In this document: piece by piece, positions 7,777 through 41,460 of the stretch
Layout: each line of letters starts with the position of its first letter
Numbering within the stretch: position 1 is the stretch's first letter
From: Escherichia coli
GTDB lineage: Bacteria > Pseudomonadota > Gammaproteobacteria > Enterobacterales > Enterobacteriaceae
Length of the DNA stretch: 64,000 nt
Direction: 5' to 3' (one strand)
Assembly: GCF_003991155.1 (NCBI RefSeq)
Contig: NZ_CP031294.1
Translations under genes and position numbers: made by a program
Notes under the pieces: model-generated
Database searches by the model: none
Told to the model about the DNA's origin: nothing
Seen by the model: only the letters and a program-made list of their open reading frames with translations

Positions 7777-8208
7777 TCAACGGGGAGTAATAAAGCGTTC
7801 AGAGCCTAATCGCTCTAATTCAACGATGGCCATCTTTGACGCCTGAACGATCATGTCTCGGCGATGCGAAAAGGCGGCGACAGCATGTTTGTATATGTCT
7901 GCGATGTGCCGTGCTTCATCCAACTTCTGCCGTTTAGACAGATACTGTGGGTTTGTTTTAACCTTAGCGTCCAGTACAGATTCGTTGAACTTAATGCCAT
8001 TCATACTCAAGTTCTTACGCTCTGTGTCGTATAGCTTTGCTTCAACAGCTTCAAGGTTAAGTTTTGCTTCTGCGACACTTCTTTCTGCATGGGCGAGTTT
8101 TGAGCCATATTCCATCAACAGGCGGGGTTGTCTACGCCAGACTTCTTCCAGATTGTCTCGGTCAAACTCGAGATCGGACATGATTTTTTCGTATATATTG
8201 GTGCTCAT
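7777..8208 (-). CDS. Hypothetical protein (predicted coiled coil)
   Basis: 143-aa ORF with no recognisable catalytic motif. Confidence 0.4.
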   Translation of the reverse strand: MSTNIYEKIMSDLEFDRDNLEEVWRRQPRLLMEYGSKLAHAERSVAEAKLNLEAVEAKLYDTERKNLSMNGIKFNESVLDAKVKTNPQYLSKRQKLDEARHIADIYKHAVAAFSHRRDMIVQASKMAIVELERLGSERFITPR

Positions 8209-8452
8209 TTTGATAGATTCTCACTTATCATGATGTATTGATTATAGAGCTTAAATTAACGCTAATCCAAGATAGACCGTTATGCTATCTGCTCGAACAA
8301 CCATTTCTTAGGGCTTGTTAATTGCAGGAGTTTCTCCTATTGTGTTCGTGGATTTAATCGAAAGAAATATGGGTTTTGAAAAGGATAGAATCTTCATGTT
8401 TCCGCACAGCATTTATCATTAATTATTCAAATTAAAAGGAAATATTATCCTC

Positions 8453-9043
8453 ATGTTTGATATTTATAATTTATTAAAGCAAATAGCAGAGAACACGAAA
8501 CCTGACCATTCTGCTATTTGGATTGCTGTAATATCTTCAATATCAGCTATTGCAGGCGCTGCTATTGGTGCATATTTGTTATATCGAGGCACAAACGAAC
8601 AAATTAATTCTGCTGCTGCTATTGAAGATAAAAAATTAAAAGCAACTATAATTACCGCAGAAAGACTTCGTTGGCTTCAAGAGCTAAGGTCAAGAAGTAG
8701 TGAGTTTTATGCGAATCTCGATATGAATTACAACTTATTAAAACGACCGATAAATCCGCAGGCAATCCCGACATATCAACAAGCTGGGGACGAACTGGCG
8801 AAAATTGTAATGATTCAATGCAATCAGATAATTGTATTGCTTAATCCTAAAAAAACTCATCAGCAAACTATTTTTAATAAATGTAATGATGCACTTAAAT
8901 TTTTCATGGAATGCGTCGAAGAAAAAAATAATGGTAATCTGAACTTTGATGATTCCAAGTATGCGGAAATAAAAAACGATTACTTTAATGCTTTAACTGA
9001 AATAGGTATTGAAACTTGGAAGCAGATAAAAGAGTTAAGTTGA
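8453..9043 (+). CDS. AT-rich accessory gene: membrane-anchored protein of unknown function
   Basis: Plus-strand ORF inside a minus-strand block; visibly lower GC than flanks; hydrophobic helix at residues ~20-45; own downstream terminator. Confidence 0.5.
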   Translation: MFDIYNLLKQIAENTKPDHSAIWIAVISSISAIAGAAIGAYLLYRGTNEQINSAAAIEDKKLKATIITAERLRWLQELRSRSSEFYANLDMNYNLLKRPINPQAIPTYQQAGDELAKIVMIQCNQIIVLLNPKKTHQQTIFNKCNDALKFFMECVEEKNNGNLNFDDSKYAEIKNDYFNALTEIGIETWKQIKELS

Positions 9044-9104
9044 TGTCTTATTGGCGGAAGATAATTAATAACTATCACTACACGGAATCTGCAATTAATA
9101 AATG

Positions 9105-9133
9105 AAACCCGCGATTGGCGGGTTTTTTATTTA
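9105..9133 (+). terminator. Rho-independent terminator (plus strand)
   Basis: AAACCCGC-GATTG-GCGGGTTT hairpin followed by TTTTATTTAT. Confidence 0.6.
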
Positions 9134-9261
9134 TGCGACTTTCTTACCCAAGATGTTGGATAGAGTGACTCTGGTCTGGCGTTTCAGCCTGTACTATCTC
9201 ACATCGCCAATCTTGTTTACTTTCATAAACTCTTTGGCCTCCTTTATGGTGTTTTCTTTAT

Positions 9262-30584: not shown

Positions 30585-31334
30585 TTAATTAGATAGGGGA
30601 TCAATAAACCGCCGTGCTTCTTCCAGTTCTTCTGGAAAGTGGGCGGAAATAAGGCGCTCTGGAACGATTTCCATTAGCCAGATAGCGGAGAAAATTGCGC
30701 GTATGCGCTTGCTGCGGGGGATGGTGCGTAAACGCTCCAGAATCCACTCAAAATAGCTTTCCTGGATCGGGTTGAACTGCATGTCTCCTATATGCTTAAA
30801 GCTAACCAGAGAGTCATCCAGACGGGTTGTTGCGCGTCTGGCTAATTTCTCTTCAAATATCTCAATCAGTTCTGGCTGCCACAAATGCTGTGGGCGAGGC
30901 AGCTTGTCCCACAGACGTCGTGCAGCTGCGGAAAGAACGGTGGAGATAAAGTAGTCGTATGAGCAGCAATAGCGGTCAGCAAACTGGCGTGCTTTCCATA
31001 GCGACGTTTTATTGGCAGTCGACAACTCCTGATAAGGCAGGCGTTTTAACCCGGTGGTGAACGGAGCTGTTTCAAAGTGTTCGCGACCGTGCGTCAGCAT
31101 GATATTTGAGTACTGACGTTTGTATGCCTCCGTAAACAGACAGGTGGCCATAAGAGGATGCATGTCGCGGTAATCAAACCACTTCGTATCGAAGAGTTCA
31201 GCCTCGTCTTTGCAGCGCGACAAACCAATGTTTTCAGCAACCCACTTATCCATAACAGCGGTATTCCACTCTGTCATGAAGTCGTACTGGTCGTTGTCGA
31301 TGGTGTCGAAAAAGATTTGGCTCATGTGGCTCAC
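30585..31334 (-). CDS. Hypothetical protein
   Basis: 249-aa ORF; upstream region carries both conserved intergenic motifs. Confidence 0.45.
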   Translation of the reverse strand: MSHMSQIFFDTIDNDQYDFMTEWNTAVMDKWVAENIGLSRCKDEAELFDTKWFDYRDMHPLMATCLFTEAYKRQYSNIMLTHGREHFETAPFTTGLKRLPYQELSTANKTSLWKARQFADRYCCSYDYFISTVLSAAARRLWDKLPRPQHLWQPELIEIFEEKLARRATTRLDDSLVSFKHIGDMQFNPIQESYFEWILERLRTIPRSKRIRAIFSAIWLMEIVPERLISAHFPEELEEARRFIDPLSN

Positions 31335-31503
31335 CTGGTAGGTAGTTACTTACTTATCACAATGAGCTGATGATAGCGATTGGTGGCAGTTTTTGGAAGT
31401 GGAAACGGAAGGGAGTTGTTCTGGTGGGTATCTTTTGAAAGACCTGCTTCCGTATATTTAATAAGTTACTTATTATTTATATACAGAAACAGGTCATGAA
31501 TAC

Positions 31504-33207
31504 TTAATTATTAAGCAATCTGCTCACACGTAGTTTGTTAAGACTTGATCTAGAGGCCAGTTTCGTTAATGCACCTATTGCTTTATTCGTGATTTTTTGC
31601 TGTTCTTCTGTTAGTTCTTGCATACTTTTGAATCTGAGCAACCCCTTTCTCACTAAATCCAAAGCATCCTGATTGCGGGATAATATCCACTTTAAATAAT
31701 CATCTTCAGAGAAACTGTTAAGATATGCTATGTCACTATGATTAAATTTGCCTTCAATTATTTTGTATAAAACATTCTCTAAATTAGTCTCTTCAGGCTT
31801 CTTATCCATCAATTTTTTTTGAATTAGCAGACCTAACGTTTCGTTACCAAATATCTCTACATACAAATTCCGAAAAGCAGTATAAGCATCATCTTGGCTA
31901 ACAAAGGCATCTGCATATGCCTCTATATAACTATCACAATCAATCTCCAATCTATTTAAGATATCAATCAAGCCTATGAAGTGAGCAACAGGTATGTGTG
32001 AAAGATTGTCGTTAATTACACATTTTATCTTAGAAATAAACTCAGATTCATTGTCCTTGAATGAGTCACTAAAAATATCCCAAACATTGTTAACCTCACA
32101 TAAAGCCTTGTGTTCTTTATATTGTTTATTTTTTTCTTCTATTATACCTCGAATATTGCTTTCAGTAGAAAGATAACCATTCTTGAGATAAAAATCTATG
32201 TCATCATCGAAAGCAATTTCCGCTCGTTCATAAATAATATCAAGACTATTAATAAATGAATATACAGAATCATCCTTTTTATCATCTAACATGTAATCAA
32301 ATACATGTATGTTTTTAATTGATTCTTTAAACAAGGCATAATCAACACCTGGAACACCAGAATAGTAAACCACTGAAAACAGAACCAATCTATTGATAAA
32401 ACTTTCTCTAACCTTATCCTCTGCCAAGCTTAGCTCATTCCTAAGATTAACCAGAGATGTTTTTATTTTATTTAATATACGGATATTTTTAATGCCTAAG
32501 TCATTTGCTAAGACTTTTAACAAAAGAAAATCAGAATCAGTTTCATAAAAAACTTTACGTAAGTTCTTCTCAGGCGTAGGATCGTATTTTATTTCGACAT
32601 CAATTACTTTTTCTCTGTACTCTAAAAACTGTTTTTTTGCAGTTTCATCATGTAAATTATCTTCATTTAAAATTAGAACAACTTTGCAACCTTTTCTTCT
32701 TGCTAATTCATCAATTACCCCCATAATTTCTTTAACTTCTAGCGAATTACCTTTTCTTTCAACATCATCAATACAAACCAAATAATTATTAACAAATTTA
32801 TACTCAAGAGATGACAGCAGGTTATCTGTTTTGAACCCAAAAAAATCGTTCTTTCCGAAATGTATTAAAAATTTTGACAAGGAGTTGTATTTCAACCATC
32901 CCCAAAACCCATTTCTATAACGAATCATAGTTCGATCCGTTTCAGATAAAATTAGTTCTTTATATTTCTTTTCATTAATTGGTGTGGCACAATGATAAAG
33001 AGTTTTTTTAATATCACCAATAGAGTTAACCCCAAACAAAGAAACATACGAATATGCATTAAAATCTAATCCTTCAGAATGCTTAGTATAAAAACTATTC
33101 CAATAATGAGTTTTACCAACGCCCCAATCTCCTTTTATGACGGCAACCCGATGATCTGAAACTAGAAAATTTTTTAGAAATGATTCTATCGATTCCATTA
33201 GTATCAA
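31504..33207 (-). CDS. AT-rich accessory gene: P-loop NTPase, KAP-family-like
   Basis: Walker A GDWGVGKTH near the N-terminus, Walker B LVCIDDVER; 567 aa; markedly lower GC than neighbours. Confidence 0.5.
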   Translation of the reverse strand: MILMESIESFLKNFLVSDHRVAVIKGDWGVGKTHYWNSFYTKHSEGLDFNAYSYVSLFGVNSIGDIKKTLYHCATPINEKKYKELILSETDRTMIRYRNGFWGWLKYNSLSKFLIHFGKNDFFGFKTDNLLSSLEYKFVNNYLVCIDDVERKGNSLEVKEIMGVIDELARRKGCKVVLILNEDNLHDETAKKQFLEYREKVIDVEIKYDPTPEKNLRKVFYETDSDFLLLKVLANDLGIKNIRILNKIKTSLVNLRNELSLAEDKVRESFINRLVLFSVVYYSGVPGVDYALFKESIKNIHVFDYMLDDKKDDSVYSFINSLDIIYERAEIAFDDDIDFYLKNGYLSTESNIRGIIEEKNKQYKEHKALCEVNNVWDIFSDSFKDNESEFISKIKCVINDNLSHIPVAHFIGLIDILNRLEIDCDSYIEAYADAFVSQDDAYTAFRNLYVEIFGNETLGLLIQKKLMDKKPEETNLENVLYKIIEGKFNHSDIAYLNSFSEDDYLKWILSRNQDALDLVRKGLLRFKSMQELTEEQQKITNKAIGALTKLASRSSLNKLRVSRLLNN

Positions 33208-33249
33208 TCCTTTAATTCATATATTGGGCGTAACAAACGCCCAATATAA

Positions 33250-33609
33250 TCAACCTTTCTTCATCAACTCTCGTTTAATTTCATCGGTACGCATCGTAAC
33301 GTCGGCAGCTGTGATCGCCTCGTTAAGCTTCACGATGTCCTCGATTTCCTGCGGTGACTTCTCTGCCAGATGGAAAATGGCTGCTCGAATCACGTCAGAA
33401 CGAGTGAACTTCTCGAAGCGAGGGATGAACTTCATCATCTCCAGCAGTTCGAAGTATTCGTCTTCCAGTGACATTGTGCGGCTTTTAATTTTCTCTTTGC
33501 CACGAGTCGGGCGTCCCTGTGGTCTGACTGGTTGGCGCAAAGGAGTTGTGTTCTTAGCCGGTGCATCAGGCTCTTTGCGCTTTGCTAGGTCACCCATTTT
33601 CATGGACAT
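33250..33609 (-). CDS. Small basic protein downstream of parA (possible ParG/RHH-like partition adaptor)
   Basis: 119 aa, translationally coupled to parA (shared coordinate 33609); role inferred from position only. Confidence 0.35.
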   Translation of the reverse strand: MSMKMGDLAKRKEPDAPAKNTTPLRQPVRPQGRPTRGKEKIKSRTMSLEDEYFELLEMMKFIPRFEKFTRSDVIRAAIFHLAEKSPQEIEDIVKLNEAITAADVTMRTDEIKRELMKKG

Positions 33610-34277
33610 TATTCTTCTTCCTCCAGACTCAACAGATAATCTACAAATTCTTCAAACTCGGCTTCCGCCTTTTTGTCGCGCTCGTTACCGGTCATTTCAA
33701 AGATAGAACGACCAGACTCTTCCGCATCATCATAGACGTTGCGGTTATATAGATTGACTGGCGCAGACTCGATGCCAAACGTCTCAACAATCTCTTTAGC
33801 CGCCAGAATGCGAGACACTTGTGATGGCAAAGCCGGGCACTGGTTCATGACCGCGCGGACCTTCACTTTATCGTTTACATTACGAACATTGTCGATAATA
33901 GGATCAATGTCACGTAAAGATTTCAAATCACGACGCTTAGGACGCAGCGGGATAATGATAACGTCAGCCATCAGCATCGCTTGTCGCTGAATTTCGGAGT
34001 CGAAGCCACCAGCATCTACCACTACAAACTCAGCTCTACCCTGAAGCGATTTTAGGTGCTTAATGATGTCATCCTGAACGTATGCAAAAGGAATCAGCTC
34101 AAGGTCTTCGTTCTGTCGACGGTCTTCACACCAGCTCGTTGTCGTGCGCTGAATATCTATATCGGTAATATAAACCTTCTTCTTCTTTTTGACTTTCAGG
34201 CAAACGGCAATTTGCTGGGCAACGGTGGATTTGCCAGGCCCGCCCTTTGTGCCGCCAACCACAAAGATCTTGGTCAT
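33609..34277 (-). CDS. parA: ParA/Soj-family partition ATPase
   Basis: Deviant Walker A GGTKGGPGKST at the N-terminus, ParA-like Walker A' and B segments (VVVDAGG). Confidence 0.65.
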   Translation of the reverse strand: MTKIFVVGGTKGGPGKSTVAQQIAVCLKVKKKKKVYITDIDIQRTTTSWCEDRRQNEDLELIPFAYVQDDIIKHLKSLQGRAEFVVVDAGGFDSEIQRQAMLMADVIIIPLRPKRRDLKSLRDIDPIIDNVRNVNDKVKVRAVMNQCPALPSQVSRILAAKEIVETFGIESAPVNLYNRNVYDDAEESGRSIFEMTGNERDKKAEAEFEEFVDYLLSLEEEE

Positions 34278-34453: not shown

Positions 34454-35206
34454 TTAATCTTTTAGGTATAAACCTACTGGAGTTCTTGTTTTGCGGGAGA
34501 TGATAAGTACGATAAATTTCTGAACGTTAACTTGCACTTTGTTTGGGAGCCAAGAGCTTAACTCTGCATCAAGCAACAATCCTCTGTTCCACGGCAAAAA
34601 TCCGGTTTCTTTCCCCATCCCGTACTCACCTAACACATCTTCGAACGTTTCTGTTTTGGCATTGTATATACGCACATCGCCGGTTCGCATGAGAGGCCCT
34701 GCCCAGATCTTAGCACCAGGAATGGTTTGTGTATCGTCGCAGACTAAATGCTCATACCAATGAAGAAGAAAGAGATAGGTACGGTGACACAATCCTCGCT
34801 GACGACGCTCTCTGACAGTTTCGACACCAGCTACCTGGTAACATTCGATCTCATTACCGTCTTCAACAAAACTATATTCACGCAGAGCTATCCTACCAGC
34901 GATCGTATTTTTGTTTTCGTCCAGAAGCCCGGACTGGAGCACCTCTTTGATAATCTCTTCTTCAGGGGCATCTTCATCCGCTCGATCTAAGATGAATTCG
35001 CTCAGGTCGCCTTGGTCGCGCGCACCTACACGTTCCATAGAGACATACAGGCAAATGTCATCTTCTGGTTCAATGATTTCAATTTCTGAGATTTTATAGA
35101 GGTAGGCTTCATTGATAAGAAAGCCAAAACGAACAACACGAGTCTCCCCTTTATGAGGAAACTCGCTTAGATCTTTTGAATATGCGCTATCTAGTGTAGG
35201 AGCCAT
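34454..35206 (-). CDS. Hypothetical protein
   Basis: 250-aa ORF. Confidence 0.45.
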   Translation of the reverse strand: MAPTLDSAYSKDLSEFPHKGETRVVRFGFLINEAYLYKISEIEIIEPEDDICLYVSMERVGARDQGDLSEFILDRADEDAPEEEIIKEVLQSGLLDENKNTIAGRIALREYSFVEDGNEIECYQVAGVETVRERRQRGLCHRTYLFLLHWYEHLVCDDTQTIPGAKIWAGPLMRTGDVRIYNAKTETFEDVLGEYGMGKETGFLPWNRGLLLDAELSSWLPNKVQVNVQKFIVLIISRKTRTPVGLYLKD

Positions 35207-35574
35207 TTTGTAGCAGAATCATCAGCCTTAACCGTGCTGACAATGCTACCATGATTGCGTAAGAAGCGGCGAATAGAATGTTCAATAACCTCCGAAAAAG
35301 CCTCGATAAAACGAGACAGCTCAGGGTACTGTTTAGCTGGCTTGACTACAAAACGAACACGACCATTCAGGTAAATTGCTTCAGCTAATGGCTTCACGCT
35401 TGCACCAGCGCGCTCAACATCGTCTTTGAAGGTAACGATGAAGCGTGAGTCTTCCGGTTCAATAGCGTCATTATTGAGCTTACGTACTTCAAGCTTGTGC
35501 TGATTCAGCACATGAGTCTCGATAATACTCGTGCAATCGCGAATAGTTTGTATAGAACGTTTCTCGTTCAGCAT
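35191..35574 (-). CDS. Hypothetical protein
   Basis: 127-aa ORF overlapping the downstream gene. Confidence 0.4.
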   Translation of the reverse strand: MLNEKRSIQTIRDCTSIIETHVLNQHKLEVRKLNNDAIEPEDSRFIVTFKDDVERAGASVKPLAEAIYLNGRVRFVVKPAKQYPELSRFIEAFSEVIEHSIRRFLRNHGSIVSTVKADDSATKWLLH

Positions 35575-37431: not shown

Positions 37432-40400
37432 TCAGTTACTTGTTGCCCCAACAGTACCTGCAAATTTCAGCCATTGACCTGACGGACTTCTATTACTACG
37501 GTAATGATAAACGAGGATTGCGTTTGTAACTCCACCGTAGTCAGCTTTATGTGACGTTGTTAAACGAATTGTATAATCACCGTTAGGTAGATTAAAAACT
37601 TCGATTATAGATTCTGCTAATTCTACAGCACCAAATCCCGTTATATTGTTGATACTGCCAGCATTGAATCCCATAGCATCGCCAAAGCCAATCCAATAAC
37701 TTTTGCTAAACGCCCCATTTGATTTTAGGTGGCTAATGAATGTGGACAAACTCATGCCCATATCCCCACCTGAAACAGAGGAAGTTCGCACAGTCATACT
37801 TGGAAGAGCACTGCTCTTCACATAGGAACTTAGAAGGTTTGTTACCTCTGTTTTCGTATAGGCATTAAGGTTAGCCGCAGTCAAAGTAATATCGGCAGAG
37901 CCATCAAACGCCACACCAGCAATTTTCCTTGCTGTCTGCAATTTTGTGGCAGTGGCAGCATTACCAGTAGTGTTCTGATTACCGGTTGTATTCACACCAG
38001 GTATTGAATCCTTAGCGGTATATACCTGCGCCCACGCAGACCATGCCGCATCAGTGGTATCTCTTCGGGAGCGAATGAAAACCGGCGCATGTGCACCGCT
38101 CGTACCACTCCAGCCAATAAGCAACTCGCCCTCACCAGCAGCACTCGCACCTTTCATGTGCAATACGTTGCCATACGTGGTCGGGTAGCTATTGCTGTAC
38201 GCCTCGTACATTTGAATGCCAGCAGTACCTTGAGCAGAACCGCTTAACGCCGTAACTCGGCCACGAGATACCAATGTATTAATGTTGATATCGCCTGAGC
38301 CATCAAACTTAACACCATTGATGTTTCTCGCTGTTTGCAACTTCGTAGCTGTTGAAGCATTACCGTTCAAACTACCATTTACGCCACCAGTCACATTTAG
38401 TCCATTACCAATTGATACAGCACCGCTGGTATTATTAATTGTAATAGGTCGCAAACCGTTCCATGAACCTAATGTGTCTCCTGATGCTGTTAGCATGAAA
38501 TATGTGTTCGATCCATCATTACGGATAAAGAACCCAAAGCTACCGTAAGCAATGCGGAAACCATTTGCATATTTTGAAATGATCTCGCCAGAAGATGTCA
38601 AACCTCCAGATAATGTACCACCGGTAAGAGGTAATGCACCGACATCAGAGGCTGTTGGTTTGTTTTTCGTGTTATATACTCTTCGCCATCCTGGAGAATA
38701 ATCTGTGCCATTAAATACATAGATAAACTCCGCATTAGTGAGAGCACCAGAGACACTCGTCGTTGTGGCCGTTGTTATACGGATCGTATAATTGTTTGAG
38801 CTACTACCGTTATTAAATACCTCTATAACAGCTCCTGCCAATGGAATAACGCCACAACCAGTTTCACTATTTGGTATGGTTGCACTATTGGCATAGGCCC
38901 ACGCACATCGAGCAATCCATGACTTTGTGTTAAATGCTCCATTATTTTGCAATAACGTCACTAACTGTGCTGTTGTTATTGCTCCGCCATTACTTCCTGT
39001 AGTTAACCAACCAGTAGGAGATGCCGGGCAACCTATATTTGCTGGCGACAAGGAAATATTTGCCGAGCCGTCAAACGACACCCCATTAATAGTACGCGCA
39101 GTCTGCAACTTCGTAGCAGTAGCCGCGTTGCCCGTTGTATTCTGATTACCAGTCGTATTAACACCTGGCAAATTAATATTCGCAGTACCATCAAAGCTCA
39201 CGCCGCCGATAGTTCTTGCCGTCTGAAGTTTTGTAGCAGTTGCAGCATTACCAGTGGTGTTCTGATTACCCGTAGTATTTACACCTGGAAGGTTGATATT
39301 TGCAGAACCGTCGAAACCAACTCCACCGATAGATCTTGCCGTCTGCAATTTCGTGGCTGTACTTGCATTACCATTCAATGAACCAGTTAATCCACCTGTA
39401 ACAGACAACGGACCTGAAACTGTTCCTCCGGTTGTTGGCAGTGCTCCAATATCTGATGGTGTAGGTTTCTGATGTGAGCTATACATCGTATAAACAACAC
39501 CATCGGTAACGCTGGAAGGCTTACTCGCTGAATATGTTGGCGAGGTATAAATAGAAACTGTCGCATTTGCAGTACAATCCCAATGGATATTTACACGAGT
39601 CGCATAATTGCCAATCTCAACGTAAATATCATATGTATCGCCGGATGTGTTGATCCAGGCGAAATTCGTTAATCCGACAGCTGTACGCTTCCACAAAGCA
39701 CCTGTAATCCCTTTGGGGTTTCCATTGCCTGCTCGTAGAACCAGTTCTGAAATGCCTGCCTGATGTGGGGAGCCGACGTTGTAACCAGCGCCACCAATCA
39801 ATGCGATGTAAACGATGGAACTCGCTTGTGGCATGGTAACCGTAGCCAGTTTGAACCACCCTGCCCCGCCAGAGAAAGACATCGTTACTGAATTTAAAGT
39901 ACCAATATCTTTCGGCGTTAATGTGATATCCGCAGTCAGTGCTTTACCGTTAACTTTTCGGTTAGATGGCACCCTGCTATTCGCATTGTCATTGGCTGCT
40001 TTAACTGCTTTTGGCGTTGCGGCCAGCGATTCACTGGTGCTGTCGACAGCACTGCTAAGTTTCACAACACCTTTAGTTGTAAGGCTTGCGTCTTCCATCG
40101 CAACTGCACCGGCAATCTCTTCAGCACGATCAGCAGCAGCTTCCGCACGGGTCGCAGCGGATTCAGCAGCAGTTTTGCTCTGAGATGCTGCCGTCGCACT
40201 GCCTGCCGCCTCTGTTGCTTTCGTGGATGCCGTCGTGGCACTGCCCTTCGCTGCTGACGCCTGTCTGGTCGCCTCATCTTTTGAAGCAGACGCAGATGAT
40301 GCCGATGACGCCGCCGAACTGGCGGACGATGCGGCAGCCGTTTTTGAGGATTCTGCGCTGGTTTCCGACGCTTTCGCGTTCGTTTCGGATGTCTTCGCTG

Positions 40401-41460
40401 CGGAAGCAGACCTCGCTGCTGCGCTGGCCTGTTCAGTGGCTTCGCCAGCCTTCGTTGTGGCTGTTGAAGCAGACGATGCGGCACTTTCTGCCGATTTTCC
40501 GGCGGCGGTGGCACTGGCTGAGGCCTGCCCGGCACTTGTTGACGCGGCACTGGCAGACGACGCAGCCGCTGTTTTTGAGCCTGCCGCAGCTGAGGCACTC
40601 TGTGCTGCTGCCGTCTCAGAAGACTTAGCGTTCGTCTCGGACGTTTTTGCCGCCTTCGCGGAATTGCCTGCCGCTGTTGCCGAGGAGGCTGCACTACTGG
40701 CGCTCAAGGATGCGTTCGTTTCTGATGATTTCGCTGCCTCTTTTGAGGCCGCCGCATCCCGGACTGAGGTGGCAGCTTCTGACGCTTTCGTGGTCGCGGT
40801 GGATGCAGAAGTGGCTGCTGATTGTTGTGACGCTGCGGCATTCGTTTCAGATTTTTTCGCAGCAGTTGCACTCGCACTTGCGGCACTTTGTGAGGATGCC
40901 GCAGCGGATGCACTTTGAGACGCTTGAGAGGCTTTTTCTCCAGCGGTATTGGCGCTTTCTGCTGCTGCGGCAGCACTGGCCGCCGCCTCACGAGCTTTGT
41001 CGCCAGCAGCATCAATCGCGTCAGTGTTATTTTTATACCACTCAACGTTTTCGTTGTGCTCGTTGACGATCTGCATTAGCGGCTTAACGGTTACTTCTGT
41101 ACCGTCTTCACGCTCGATTGTCACCTCATCCAGAGCAGTCAACCAACTGCGCATAGACTTGGAATCAGCCGACATACGCGACATTAGTGCTGTAAAGCGC
41201 GCGCTAAACTGTGTTAAGTCGCCTTCATAGGTCGTAATGATTCGGCACGGAACCTCAGACTGAGTTTCGCCGGTATAAGGTTCTGAGAGAACAATATTCG
41301 TATCGCTTATTACGCGCTTGATCTCATACAGCTTATTGTCGGGGCCAATGACGATCATCCCCGGCAACACACCATTAGCTGTTACGTTCCAGGCTGTCCC
41401 TGCCCCAACCAGAGTATTGCTACCCTGTGTAAATGTGATAGTACCTTCCCTGTACCACAT
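37432..41460 (-). CDS. Side tail fiber protein
   Basis: 1342 aa; long Ala/Ser/Thr-rich coiled segment; five copies of the fibre repeat ATKLQTAR.I.GV.FDG.A.I; C-terminal receptor-binding-like domain. Confidence 0.7.
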   Translation of the reverse strand: MWYREGTITFTQGSNTLVGAGTAWNVTANGVLPGMIVIGPDNKLYEIKRVISDTNIVLSEPYTGETQSEVPCRIITTYEGDLTQFSARFTALMSRMSADSKSMRSWLTALDEVTIEREDGTEVTVKPLMQIVNEHNENVEWYKNNTDAIDAAGDKAREAAASAAAAAESANTAGEKASQASQSASAAASSQSAASASATAAKKSETNAAASQQSAATSASTATTKASEAATSVRDAAASKEAAKSSETNASLSASSAASSATAAGNSAKAAKTSETNAKSSETAAAQSASAAAGSKTAAASSASAASTSAGQASASATAAGKSAESAASSASTATTKAGEATEQASAAARSASAAKTSETNAKASETSAESSKTAAASSASSAASSASSASASKDEATRQASAAKGSATTASTKATEAAGSATAASQSKTAAESAATRAEAAADRAEEIAGAVAMEDASLTTKGVVKLSSAVDSTSESLAATPKAVKAANDNANSRVPSNRKVNGKALTADITLTPKDIGTLNSVTMSFSGGAGWFKLATVTMPQASSIVYIALIGGAGYNVGSPHQAGISELVLRAGNGNPKGITGALWKRTAVGLTNFAWINTSGDTYDIYVEIGNYATRVNIHWDCTANATVSIYTSPTYSASKPSSVTDGVVYTMYSSHQKPTPSDIGALPTTGGTVSGPLSVTGGLTGSLNGNASTATKLQTARSIGGVGFDGSANINLPGVNTTGNQNTTGNAATATKLQTARTIGGVSFDGTANINLPGVNTTGNQNTTGNAATATKLQTARTINGVSFDGSANISLSPANIGCPASPTGWLTTGSNGGAITTAQLVTLLQNNGAFNTKSWIARCAWAYANSATIPNSETGCGVIPLAGAVIEVFNNGSSSNNYTIRITTATTTSVSGALTNAEFIYVFNGTDYSPGWRRVYNTKNKPTASDVGALPLTGGTLSGGLTSSGEIISKYANGFRIAYGSFGFFIRNDGSNTYFMLTASGDTLGSWNGLRPITINNTSGAVSIGNGLNVTGGVNGSLNGNASTATKLQTARNINGVKFDGSGDININTLVSRGRVTALSGSAQGTAGIQMYEAYSNSYPTTYGNVLHMKGASAAGEGELLIGWSGTSGAHAPVFIRSRRDTTDAAWSAWAQVYTAKDSIPGVNTTGNQNTTGNAATATKLQTARKIAGVAFDGSADITLTAANLNAYTKTEVTNLLSSYVKSSALPSMTVRTSSVSGGDMGMSLSTFISHLKSNGAFSKSYWIGFGDAMGFNAGSINNITGFGAVELAESIIEVFNLPNGDYTIRLTTSHKADYGGVTNAILVYHYRSNRSPSGQWLKFAGTVGATSN

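Follow-up and report, generated by a model that had tools for sequence, protein, structure and literature searches.

PifA of the F plasmid is a KAP-type P-loop nucleoside triphosphatase (NTPase) that excludes phage T7, and KAP NTPases were reportedly proposed as phage-exclusion proteins as a class twenty years ago. Direct evidence for single-gene KAP defences is only recent. It comes from EF_KAP of Enterococcus and from KAP proteins found in gut metagenomes, which are single-gene NTPases whose phage resistance needs Walker B (PMC12632615). The gene considered here, which we call the KAP gene, encodes another protein of this class and lies on the minus strand at 31504..33198 of a stretch of 64,000 nucleotides, referred to below as the window. 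The window corresponds, with identical coordinates, to the first 64 kb of the Escherichia coli plasmid NZ_OW849379.1 (110,667 bp, IncFIB), and the element that carries the gene is an SSU5/pHCM2-like phage-plasmid. We predict, with a probability of roughly 0.55, that the KAP gene is a single-gene determinant that protects the lysogen by excluding phages or rival elements. This function is rated likeliest because the gene is a solitary, mobile and selected cassette, because the commonest occupant of its slot belongs to a validated anti-phage family, and because the KAP class has validated defence members, among them PifA and Tmn.

The KAP gene and its product

The gene is contained in an uninterrupted open reading frame (ORF) at 31504..33207 (minus strand). 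An earlier note on this DNA, made from the letters alone, had counted 567 amino acids (aa) from a TTG codon at 33207. The reading frame is present and intact as described, but its start is more likely the ATG at 33198, which gives a product of 564 aa and leaves out the three codons added by the TTG. The ATG is preferred because three observations agree: the RefSeq product (WP_000443723.1, 'P-loop NTPase fold protein') begins there, all homologues in the alignment begin at the methionine encoded there, and an AAAGGA sequence is found 8 nt upstream.

According to an AlphaFold2 model (predicted local distance difference test score 83.4), the protein consists of an N-terminal P-loop alpha/beta domain that runs to about residue 255 (residues 1-255; 32434..33198, minus strand) and an all-alpha C-terminal half (residues 256-564; 31507..32433, minus strand). 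The Walker A motif GDWGVGKT (residues 23-30; 33109..33132, minus strand) and the Walker B motif LVCIDDVER (residues 140-148; 32755..32781, minus strand) occur exactly as the earlier note had quoted them, the first as GDWGVGKTH, and agree with the KAP signatures GxxGxGK[ST] and hhhhDDh[DE]R. In an alignment of 32 homologues that are 27-77% identical to the window protein, residues G23, W25, G26, G28, K29 and T30 of Walker A and C142, D144, D145, E147 and R148 of Walker B are invariant. The interval between the two Walker motifs is the place at which many KAP proteins have membrane-spanning helices. In the protein described here residues 91-126, between the two motifs, form a polar insert that is modelled with low confidence, and neither a transmembrane segment (the highest Kyte-Doolittle 19-residue mean in the whole protein is 1.35) nor a signal peptide was found; judged by its sequence, it appears to be a soluble cytoplasmic variant of the KAP family. 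The helical C-terminal extension that is typical of the family is present. The model suggests that this domain is an alpha-solenoid, and no enzymatic fold and no winged-helix or other DNA-binding fold was recognised in it by structure comparison. The C-terminal domain always occurs fused to the NTPase domain.

The assignment to the KAP family becomes clear at the level of the family rather than of the single protein. The Pfam KAP_NTPase profile (PF07693) gives a marginal match with the protein alone (19.1 bits, independent E-value 8.7e-4, residues 15-257), yet 31 of the 32 full-length family members match it at E<=1e-3, with 6.8e-14 for the best. Among the 1,588 relatives obtained in a database search, the full-length ones have 562-597 aa and almost all carry a precomputed PF07693 match. 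In PHROGs, phrog_4740 covers the entire protein (E 8e-166), and this family has no function assigned. NCBIfam contains no match for the protein, and the family profile found no meaningful match among PDB sequences (E 0.36). Foldseek against the PDB produced weak, generic AAA+/STAND matches only (TM score 0.2-0.27); the closest structural neighbours of the N-terminal domain are Cdc6/ORC and TnsC/MuB, and the Cdc6/ORC matches are generic P-loop similarity at 9-13% identity. Thus, the profile searches that the earlier note had named as a check led to no confident housekeeping phage ATPase family, but to KAP_NTPase and to the candidate defence family PDC-S49. Its description of a KAP-like P-loop NTPase that resembles no recognisable housekeeping ATPase agrees with these results and with the distribution of the gene discussed below.

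The base composition of the gene sets it apart from its surroundings. In 500-bp sliding windows the G+C content (GC) is 0.29-0.31 within the gene and 0.45-0.49 in the flanks, the whole gene has a GC of 0.306 as compared to 0.464 for the remainder of the window, and no other 1.7-kb stretch of the 64 kb (mean 0.459, standard deviation 0.038) is lower. The earlier note had correctly observed that the GC is far below that of the parA and helicase regions on either side, and had proposed recent horizontal acquisition. The horizontal part of that proposal holds, as indicated by exact cassette boundaries and an excess of synonymous divergence (see below), whereas the recent part had to be rejected: the homologues are equally AT-rich in each host examined (GC 0.27-0.35 as compared to 0.38-0.57 in the flanks, for Salmonella, Pragia and Oleispira). 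Since low GC characterises the family throughout the hosts examined, it cannot date the acquisition as recent; it marks foreign-type cargo and not a recent event.

An exchangeable cargo slot next to the partition genes

The order of genes on the minus strand is parA (33609-34277), a small parB-like gene (33250-33609), the KAP gene, a gene of 246 aa (30585..31325; phrog_2500, without assigned function in PHROGs), a DnaB-like helicase gene and a primase gene. The two partition genes, identified by annotation, form the conserved left flank of the KAP gene, and the phrog_2500 gene, which shows 97-99% nucleotide identity among sister elements in E. coli, forms the right flank. When ten sister loci were fetched and compared with the window by pairwise BLAST, homology was found to end at 33249/33250, where the parB stop codon has its last base, and to restart at 31493-31501, shortly after the stop codon of the KAP gene. 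Together with the junction sequences, this defines an exchangeable cassette of about 1751 bp (31498..33248) with a GC of 0.307. No target-site duplications or repeats were seen at the cassette ends when the junctions were inspected by eye, and the simplest reading is that homologous recombination between conserved flanking sequences exchanges the cassettes.

At least six states of the slot with identical junctions were found. A DUF2971 gene is present in phage Cyrano and in FDAARGOS_1287, three genes including a DUF2971 gene in SSU5, a gene of 357 aa on the opposite strand in pERB3f3, a gene of 255 aa, also on the opposite strand, in PC-NDM34, a pair of genes of 246 and 136 aa in Enterobacter ludwigii, and a KAP homologue with 44% identity in Salmonella pZ1322HSL0038-2. 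The site is empty, with only 23-29 bp between parB and a conserved hairpin, in E. albertii pEA11_2, E. coli GTEN_23 and Salmonella pSTM_Phi. A search of plasmid records with a 5.2-kb query spanning the locus detected the flanks in 733 records, and only 22 of these contain the KAP gene, which is thus a cargo cassette in a variable slot and not a part of the backbone. Likewise, the parAB backbone is present in 263 of 5,426 complete E. coli genomes, plasmid-borne every time, and a megablast census of these 263 slots (>=80% coverage) shows the 255-aa cassette as the commonest occupant (106), followed by the 357-aa cassette (37), the KAP gene (27, namely 20 copies of allele 1 and 7 of a second allele with about 83.5% DNA identity) and the DUF2971 cassette (21), with six slots empty.

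The identity of the alternative cargo is informative. The 255-aa protein matches the PADLOC model PD-T4-3 over nearly its full length (E 1.3e-23) as well as a LEM-3-like GIY-YIG domain in Pfam. PD-T4-3 is a single-gene defence that was characterised by experiment and is now called CMoRE, a type IV restriction endonuclease acting on DNA with 5-hydroxymethylcytosine (5hmC) and glucosyl-5hmC (PMC12923530). In PADLOC, the DUF2971 proteins are matched by the candidate model PDC-S31 (E 2e-33 to 3e-41). For the 357-aa protein (phrog_22329) and for the two-gene cassette the family searches gave no recognisable family; by their position both are further defence candidates. The 357-aa gene is located in the retrieved loci L004 (3512-4585, minus strand) and L008 (2696-3754, minus strand), and the two-gene cassette, composed of a protein of 214 or 246 aa (phrog_22270) and one of 136 aa (phrog_17322), in L010 (2656-3799) and L002 (2637-3681). 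With its conserved flanks, many alternative inserts, empty sites and a known defence family among the inserts, the slot has the properties by which hotspots are recognised. A 2025 survey of SSU5-group phage-plasmids with DefenseFinder reported PD-T4-3, PrrC, PD-T7-5 and restriction-modification systems, and neither described a hotspot nor mentioned a KAP gene (10.1101/2025.09.12.675607). No description of the parB-proximal slot of SSU5-like phage-plasmids was found in the searchable literature.

These observations also bear on the possibility that the protein is an ATPase of the backbone, serving either the partition operon, as its third component, or the adjacent DnaB-primase module, as an initiator or loader of the ORC/Cdc6 type. 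The gene has the same orientation as parAB, starts 51 bp downstream of the parB-like gene and has no promoter of its own, and the nearest structural neighbours of its N-terminal domain would suit such a role. However, it is missing in about 90% of the elements with 97-99% identical flanks, including complete plasmids of about 109 kb with an empty site, unrelated genes take its place and may even lie on the opposite strand, and its homologues are solitary in chromosomes and in integrative and conjugative elements (ICEs); moreover, the similarity to Cdc6/ORC is generic and the C-terminal domain lacks a winged-helix or DNA-binding fold. Because of this distribution, a backbone role is effectively excluded. 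The earlier note had reasoned that the lack of a phenotype of the cloned gene, together with orthologues of typical GC at this position in all relatives, would speak against a defence function, and what the relatives have instead is other cargo or an empty slot, with low GC where homologues occur.

Expression of the KAP gene probably depends on its neighbours. The only promoter-like site upstream of the gene lies at 34424-34396, before parA; the promoter scan, which yielded fewer sites overall than were obtained in shuffled sequences, gave none between the parB-like gene and the KAP gene. The parAB genes are probably a transcription unit that reads into the cassette, and the shared orientation, the short spacing and the lack of an intervening promoter-like site suggest that the KAP gene is transcribed by read-through. 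Read-through may not be general, since parB is followed by a terminator-like hairpin in the Salmonella cassette.

Hairpins occur at both ends of the cassette. The right boundary of the slot is marked by a long hairpin (31441..31495, minus strand; RNA fold -28.7 kcal/mol, z -7.9) with a 14-bp outer stem (CCTGYTTCTGTATA/TATACRGAAGCAGG) and an AT-rich centre, followed by TCTTT. It is retained, with two compensatory pairs, in all SSU5-like elements examined from four genera (those of E. coli, Salmonella, Enterobacter and Klebsiella). The structure is probably the terminator of the parAB-cargo unit, and since it is conserved beyond what a plain terminator would need, a role in protein binding or recombination is possible. 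A second hairpin (33221..33247, minus strand; -19.8 kcal/mol, z -3.8), without a T-run, is specific for the KAP cassette and lies right after the parB stop codon, and every cassette type carries its own small hairpin directly after parB.

Evolution and distribution of the family

The two halves of the protein evolve at different rates. Identity to the second E. coli allele is 90% in the N-terminal domain and 66% in the C-terminal domain, identity to the Salmonella homologue 49% and 39%, and identity to distant relatives 35-42% and 20-26%, so that the N-terminal domain is better conserved in every comparison. When allele 1, that of the window, is compared with the second allele (NZ_CP031136.1), the Nei-Gojobori ratio of nonsynonymous to synonymous divergence (dN/dS) rises from 0.15 in the N-terminal domain to 0.25 in the C-terminal domain and reaches 0.31 over residues 401-564. 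Purifying selection thus acts on the gene and weakens toward the C-terminus. The alleles differ at 39% of synonymous sites, and dS within the gene is 0.36-0.89, whereas it is 0.02 in parA and 0.11 in the downstream gene. Therefore, the alleles are much older than the backbones on which they reside, as expected of exchanged cassettes.

This pattern is difficult to reconcile with a passenger without current benefit, i.e. a selfish or decaying insert that is kept by linkage. Such a passenger would explain why no effector or phenotype is recognised and why the GC is low, as is typical of xenogeneic DNA, and at least two copies of the gene appear frameshifted. Nevertheless, we consider it very improbable in view of the selection described above, the occurrence of an intact ORF with >=99% identity on more than 1000 contigs, the approximately 38 residues that are invariant in the 32 homologues, and the maintenance of the two-domain architecture in 1726 clusters at 50% identity. 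The frameshifted copies, in NZ_CP053233.1 (31049-32753) and CP022461.1 (50764-52466), have a 1-bp length difference, and one of them is annotated as three fragments; they reflect either occasional inactivation or sequencing error.

Homologues are found on several types of mobile elements. Those of Salmonella (44% identity) and Klebsiella (40%) phage-plasmids occupy the same slot. The Rahnella homologue (42%) is present in a P2-like prophage, between gpA, accompanied by a TacAT-like toxin-antitoxin pair, and the portal gene, which is the site described as the gpA-gpQ defence hotspot by Rousset et al. (PMC9122126). On the metagenomic contig ERR3416279, the homologue is part of a conjugative element and lies 119 bp from a type I-B retron (RT_I-B, E 2e-105; ATPase-Toprim_I-B, E 2e-140). 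Two Salmonella ICEs carry a homologue at the same cargo position, between DtrJ-like and RAQPRD genes, the Oleispira homologue adjoins IS66 and a PDC-S57-like gene, and the homologues of Pragia, Vreelandella and Ectopseudomonas stand alone among housekeeping genes. No recurring partner gene was found across the 11 homologue contexts examined. In the window as well the gene has no partner and lies directly downstream of parA and the parB-like gene, in accordance with the solitary copy beside a partition module that the earlier note had described.

A variant with 99% identity, named from Shigella sonnei, has at least 928 contigs on record and lies in the same slot (retrieved loci L020-L022). The 2025 survey mentioned above found no DefenseFinder-detectable defence in the S. 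sonnei pWPMR2-like clade of SSU5 phage-plasmids, a clade that may be the carrier of this variant (10.1101/2025.09.12.675607).

The abundance of one variant in clinical S. sonnei and E. coli, and the location of some homologues among housekeeping genes, could also point to an accessory gene whose benefit to the host has nothing to do with conflict between mobile elements, for instance one that confers stress tolerance or provides an NTPase scaffold for virulence-linked signalling. The original proposal for KAP NTPases was that they regulate how signalling complexes are assembled. We regard such a benefit as quite unlikely, since the protein has no signal peptide or membrane segment, and the turnover of the slot, the defence identity of the alternative cargo and the co-location of homologues with a retron and in the P2 hotspot fit the dynamics of immune genes.

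A CRISPR spacer directed against the KAP gene

Five E. coli chromosomes (F9792, F8111-1SC3, two O169:H41 strains and LR882990) contain a type I-E spacer of the clustered regularly interspaced short palindromic repeats (CRISPR) system that is identical over 32 of 32 positions to the sense strand of the KAP gene. The protospacer lies at 32470-32501 and is adjoined by an ATG protospacer-adjacent motif at 32502-32504 (together 32470..32504, minus strand), which is interference-proficient. In the array, which lies between queE and ygcE, this spacer takes the second position from the leader (positions 1501-1533 of retrieved locus L016, from NZ_CP024273.1). At least two of the spacer-bearing strains hold an SSU5-like plasmid of which the slot contains the 357-aa cassette instead of the KAP gene (NZ_CP024271.1, NZ_CP024264.1). 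The spacer would thus spare the resident phage-plasmid yet target its KAP-bearing sisters.

The targeting of the KAP gene by strains that hold a sister phage-plasmid with a different cassette is one argument for a role in conflict between mobile elements rather than against lytic phages, i.e. the exclusion of rival phage-plasmids, plasmids or ICEs, or counter-defence against host immunity. Other arguments are that the slot adjoins partition and replication modules, and that the family rides on phage-plasmids, a P2-like prophage and ICEs, in two of the latter within the transfer-gene region. On the other hand, those slot occupants and neighbours of homologues that could be identified are anti-phage systems or candidates (PD-T4-3, PDC-S31, retron I-B) and not anti-defence genes, the KAP NTPases that have been tested act against phages, and the protein does not resemble a known anti-defence protein. 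We judge a function of this kind to be unlikely.

Proposed mode of action and prospects

If the KAP gene is an exclusion determinant, its action could be envisaged as follows. The gene would be active in the plasmid state, probably by means of read-through from the parAB promoter, and the solenoid may act as a sensor that recognises a protein of an incoming phage. Binding and hydrolysis of NTP by the KAP domain would then cause the protein to switch or to oligomerise, and a phage or host complex might be sequestered or remodelled in such a way that infection is blocked. Sequestration or remodelling is proposed because a nuclease, pore, TIR domain or other effector fold is lacking. The outcome may be abortive, as for PifA.

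Several considerations weigh against exclusion as the function of the gene. No effector domain is recognisable and the mechanistic steps are speculative, and the promoter scan found no promoter for the KAP gene itself. The best defence-related match, to PDC-S49, is confined to the N-terminal third of the profile, and the PDC systems are themselves predictions, while the PADLOC models for PifA, QatA and Tmn do not match the protein. About 66 of the 263 slots in the census were not assigned to an occupant class, and four of the 11 homologue contexts are plain chromosomal sites where defence neighbours are absent or weak. Furthermore, an argument from genomic position does not distinguish defence from other roles in conflict or from accessory functions. 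In the literature, no paper was found that mentions the protein or PHROG accessions of the family or PDC-S49, and KAP proteins are not mentioned in two recent large defence-discovery preprints. The proposal in the earlier note that the gene is a good candidate for a single-gene defence is nevertheless strengthened by the PDC-S49 match (E 4.9e-22), by the PD-T4-3-like and PDC-S31-matching sister cassettes, and by the P2 hotspot and retron contexts of homologues.

A wider interpretation is more tentative, and we would put it at somewhat less than even odds. According to this interpretation, the protein would be the founding representative in E. coli of a large family (about 1,700 clusters at 50% identity) of soluble single-gene KAP immune sensors without enzymatic effector, in which a fast-evolving solenoid recognises a phage protein and the NTPase drives exclusion by sequestration or remodelling. 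The slot would be a new defence hotspot of SSU5-like phage-plasmids, the phrog_22329 gene and the 214/246-aa and 136-aa pair would be new defence systems, and the 99%-identical variant (more than 900 contigs, many from S. sonnei) would be a defence that was overlooked where DefenseFinder reported nothing.

The family is attractive as a tractable model, being small, soluble, encoded by a single gene and native to E. coli, and natural allele pairs with 90% identity in the NTPase domain and 66% in the solenoid could be used to map specificity. If the slot is a hotspot, it offers a cheap way to nominate further defence genes in phage-plasmids. Such elements are frequent in clinical isolates of E. 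coli, Shigella, Salmonella and Klebsiella, and their cargo therefore bears on the outcome of phage therapy. If the KAP gene turns out to have no phenotype, the finding reduces to that of an ordinary accessory gene.

Other regions of the window

A second variable slot is present just upstream of parA (34454-35574, minus strand). In the window it contains two genes without known function, encoding 250 and 127 aa, and in sister elements (retrieved loci L003 491-1325, L008 491-1289 and L010 212-1411) a GNAT-toxin/antitoxin pair (KacT/TacT-like), a HEPN-domain protein or other genes. Two more islands of low GC (0.29-0.36) are found at about 19500-21100, with an ORF at 20164-21072 (plus strand), and at about 8000-9250, with an ORF at 8453-9043 (plus strand). 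Neither ORF has a match in PADLOC or NCBIfam, and these islands are possible further sites of cargo.

A Sel1/TPR-repeat protein with a signal-peptide-like N-terminus is encoded at 26750-27946 (plus strand), between the primase gene and a block of small genes, and with a GC of about 0.40 its gene looks like another accessory gene. The tail-fibre-like gene at 37432-41460 (minus strand; 1342 aa) has a long, low-complexity N-terminal third that is rich in Ala, Ser and Thr, with a GC of up to 0.61 and repeated 'GNASTATKLQTAR' modules; the RefSeq start gives a shorter product.

Comparison with known systems

PifA and the KAP protein are both plasmid-borne KAP P-loop NTPases encoded near a replication/partition region, and in both the C-terminal part is long and helical and an enzymatic effector domain is missing. 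PifA differs in its size of 741 aa and in being paired with the repressor PifC, whereas no pifC-like gene is found beside the KAP gene, of which the neighbours are the parB-like gene and the phrog_2500 gene. An hhalign comparison of PifA with the KAP family profile aligned 83 columns, confined to Walker B, at a probability of 30%. Membership of the PifA family was rejected, since the PADLOC PifA model scores 963 bits on PifA of F and does not match the KAP protein at E<=1. Membership of Tmn or QatA, two KAP NTPase defence proteins, was likewise rejected: only PDC-S49 models match at E<=1 in PADLOC, and qatBCD partner genes are missing. The QatA model does match PifA, and is therefore able to detect KAP domains. 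An ORC/Cdc6-type AAA+ initiator was also discarded, as neither an AAA+ lid with a winged-helix domain nor presence in all relatives was found.

EF_KAP and its relatives, and likewise Tmn (Gao et al. 2020), share with the KAP protein the single-gene organisation, in which a KAP NTPase domain is followed by some 300 uncharacterised residues. Transmembrane helices, absent from the KAP protein, are present in both: two at the N-terminus of EF_KAP and two within the P-loop domain of Tmn. The comparison is one of described architecture, and these proteins occur in Firmicutes or other contexts.

PDC-S49, the best database match, likewise consists of one gene and is close in size, with profiles of 619-629 positions. 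Residues 6-226 align to positions 8-214 of the 624 positions of model PDLC05031, and full-length membership was rejected since the C-terminal 60% is unmatched. The PDC systems are 145 candidates that were defined by their embedding in BREX, DISARM or type I restriction-modification loci (10.1101/2024.01.29.577857). Such embedding was seen in none of the 11 homologue contexts, a small sample that was not chosen for that question.

At the level of the locus, the PD-T4-3/CMoRE-like gene resembles the KAP gene in being a single-gene cassette in the identical slot, but PD-T4-3/CMoRE is unrelated in protein and mechanism, being a nuclease acting on DNA with 5hmC or glucosyl-5hmC, and the gene in the slot is encoded on the opposite strand. 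The gpA-gpQ hotspot of P2 and the cos-proximal hotspot of P4 resemble the slot in their conserved flanks, the many short alternative cassettes, the presence of validated defences, the AT-rich cargo, the empty sites and the lack of need for an integrase (PMC9122126), and one KAP homologue resides in the P2 hotspot itself. The slot described here differs from these in its location on an SSU5-like phage-plasmid, between the parB stop codon and a conserved hairpin. Thus, single-gene KAP NTPase defence candidates and hotspots in temperate elements were known already, and what appears to be new is this family and the parB-proximal slot in which it is carried.

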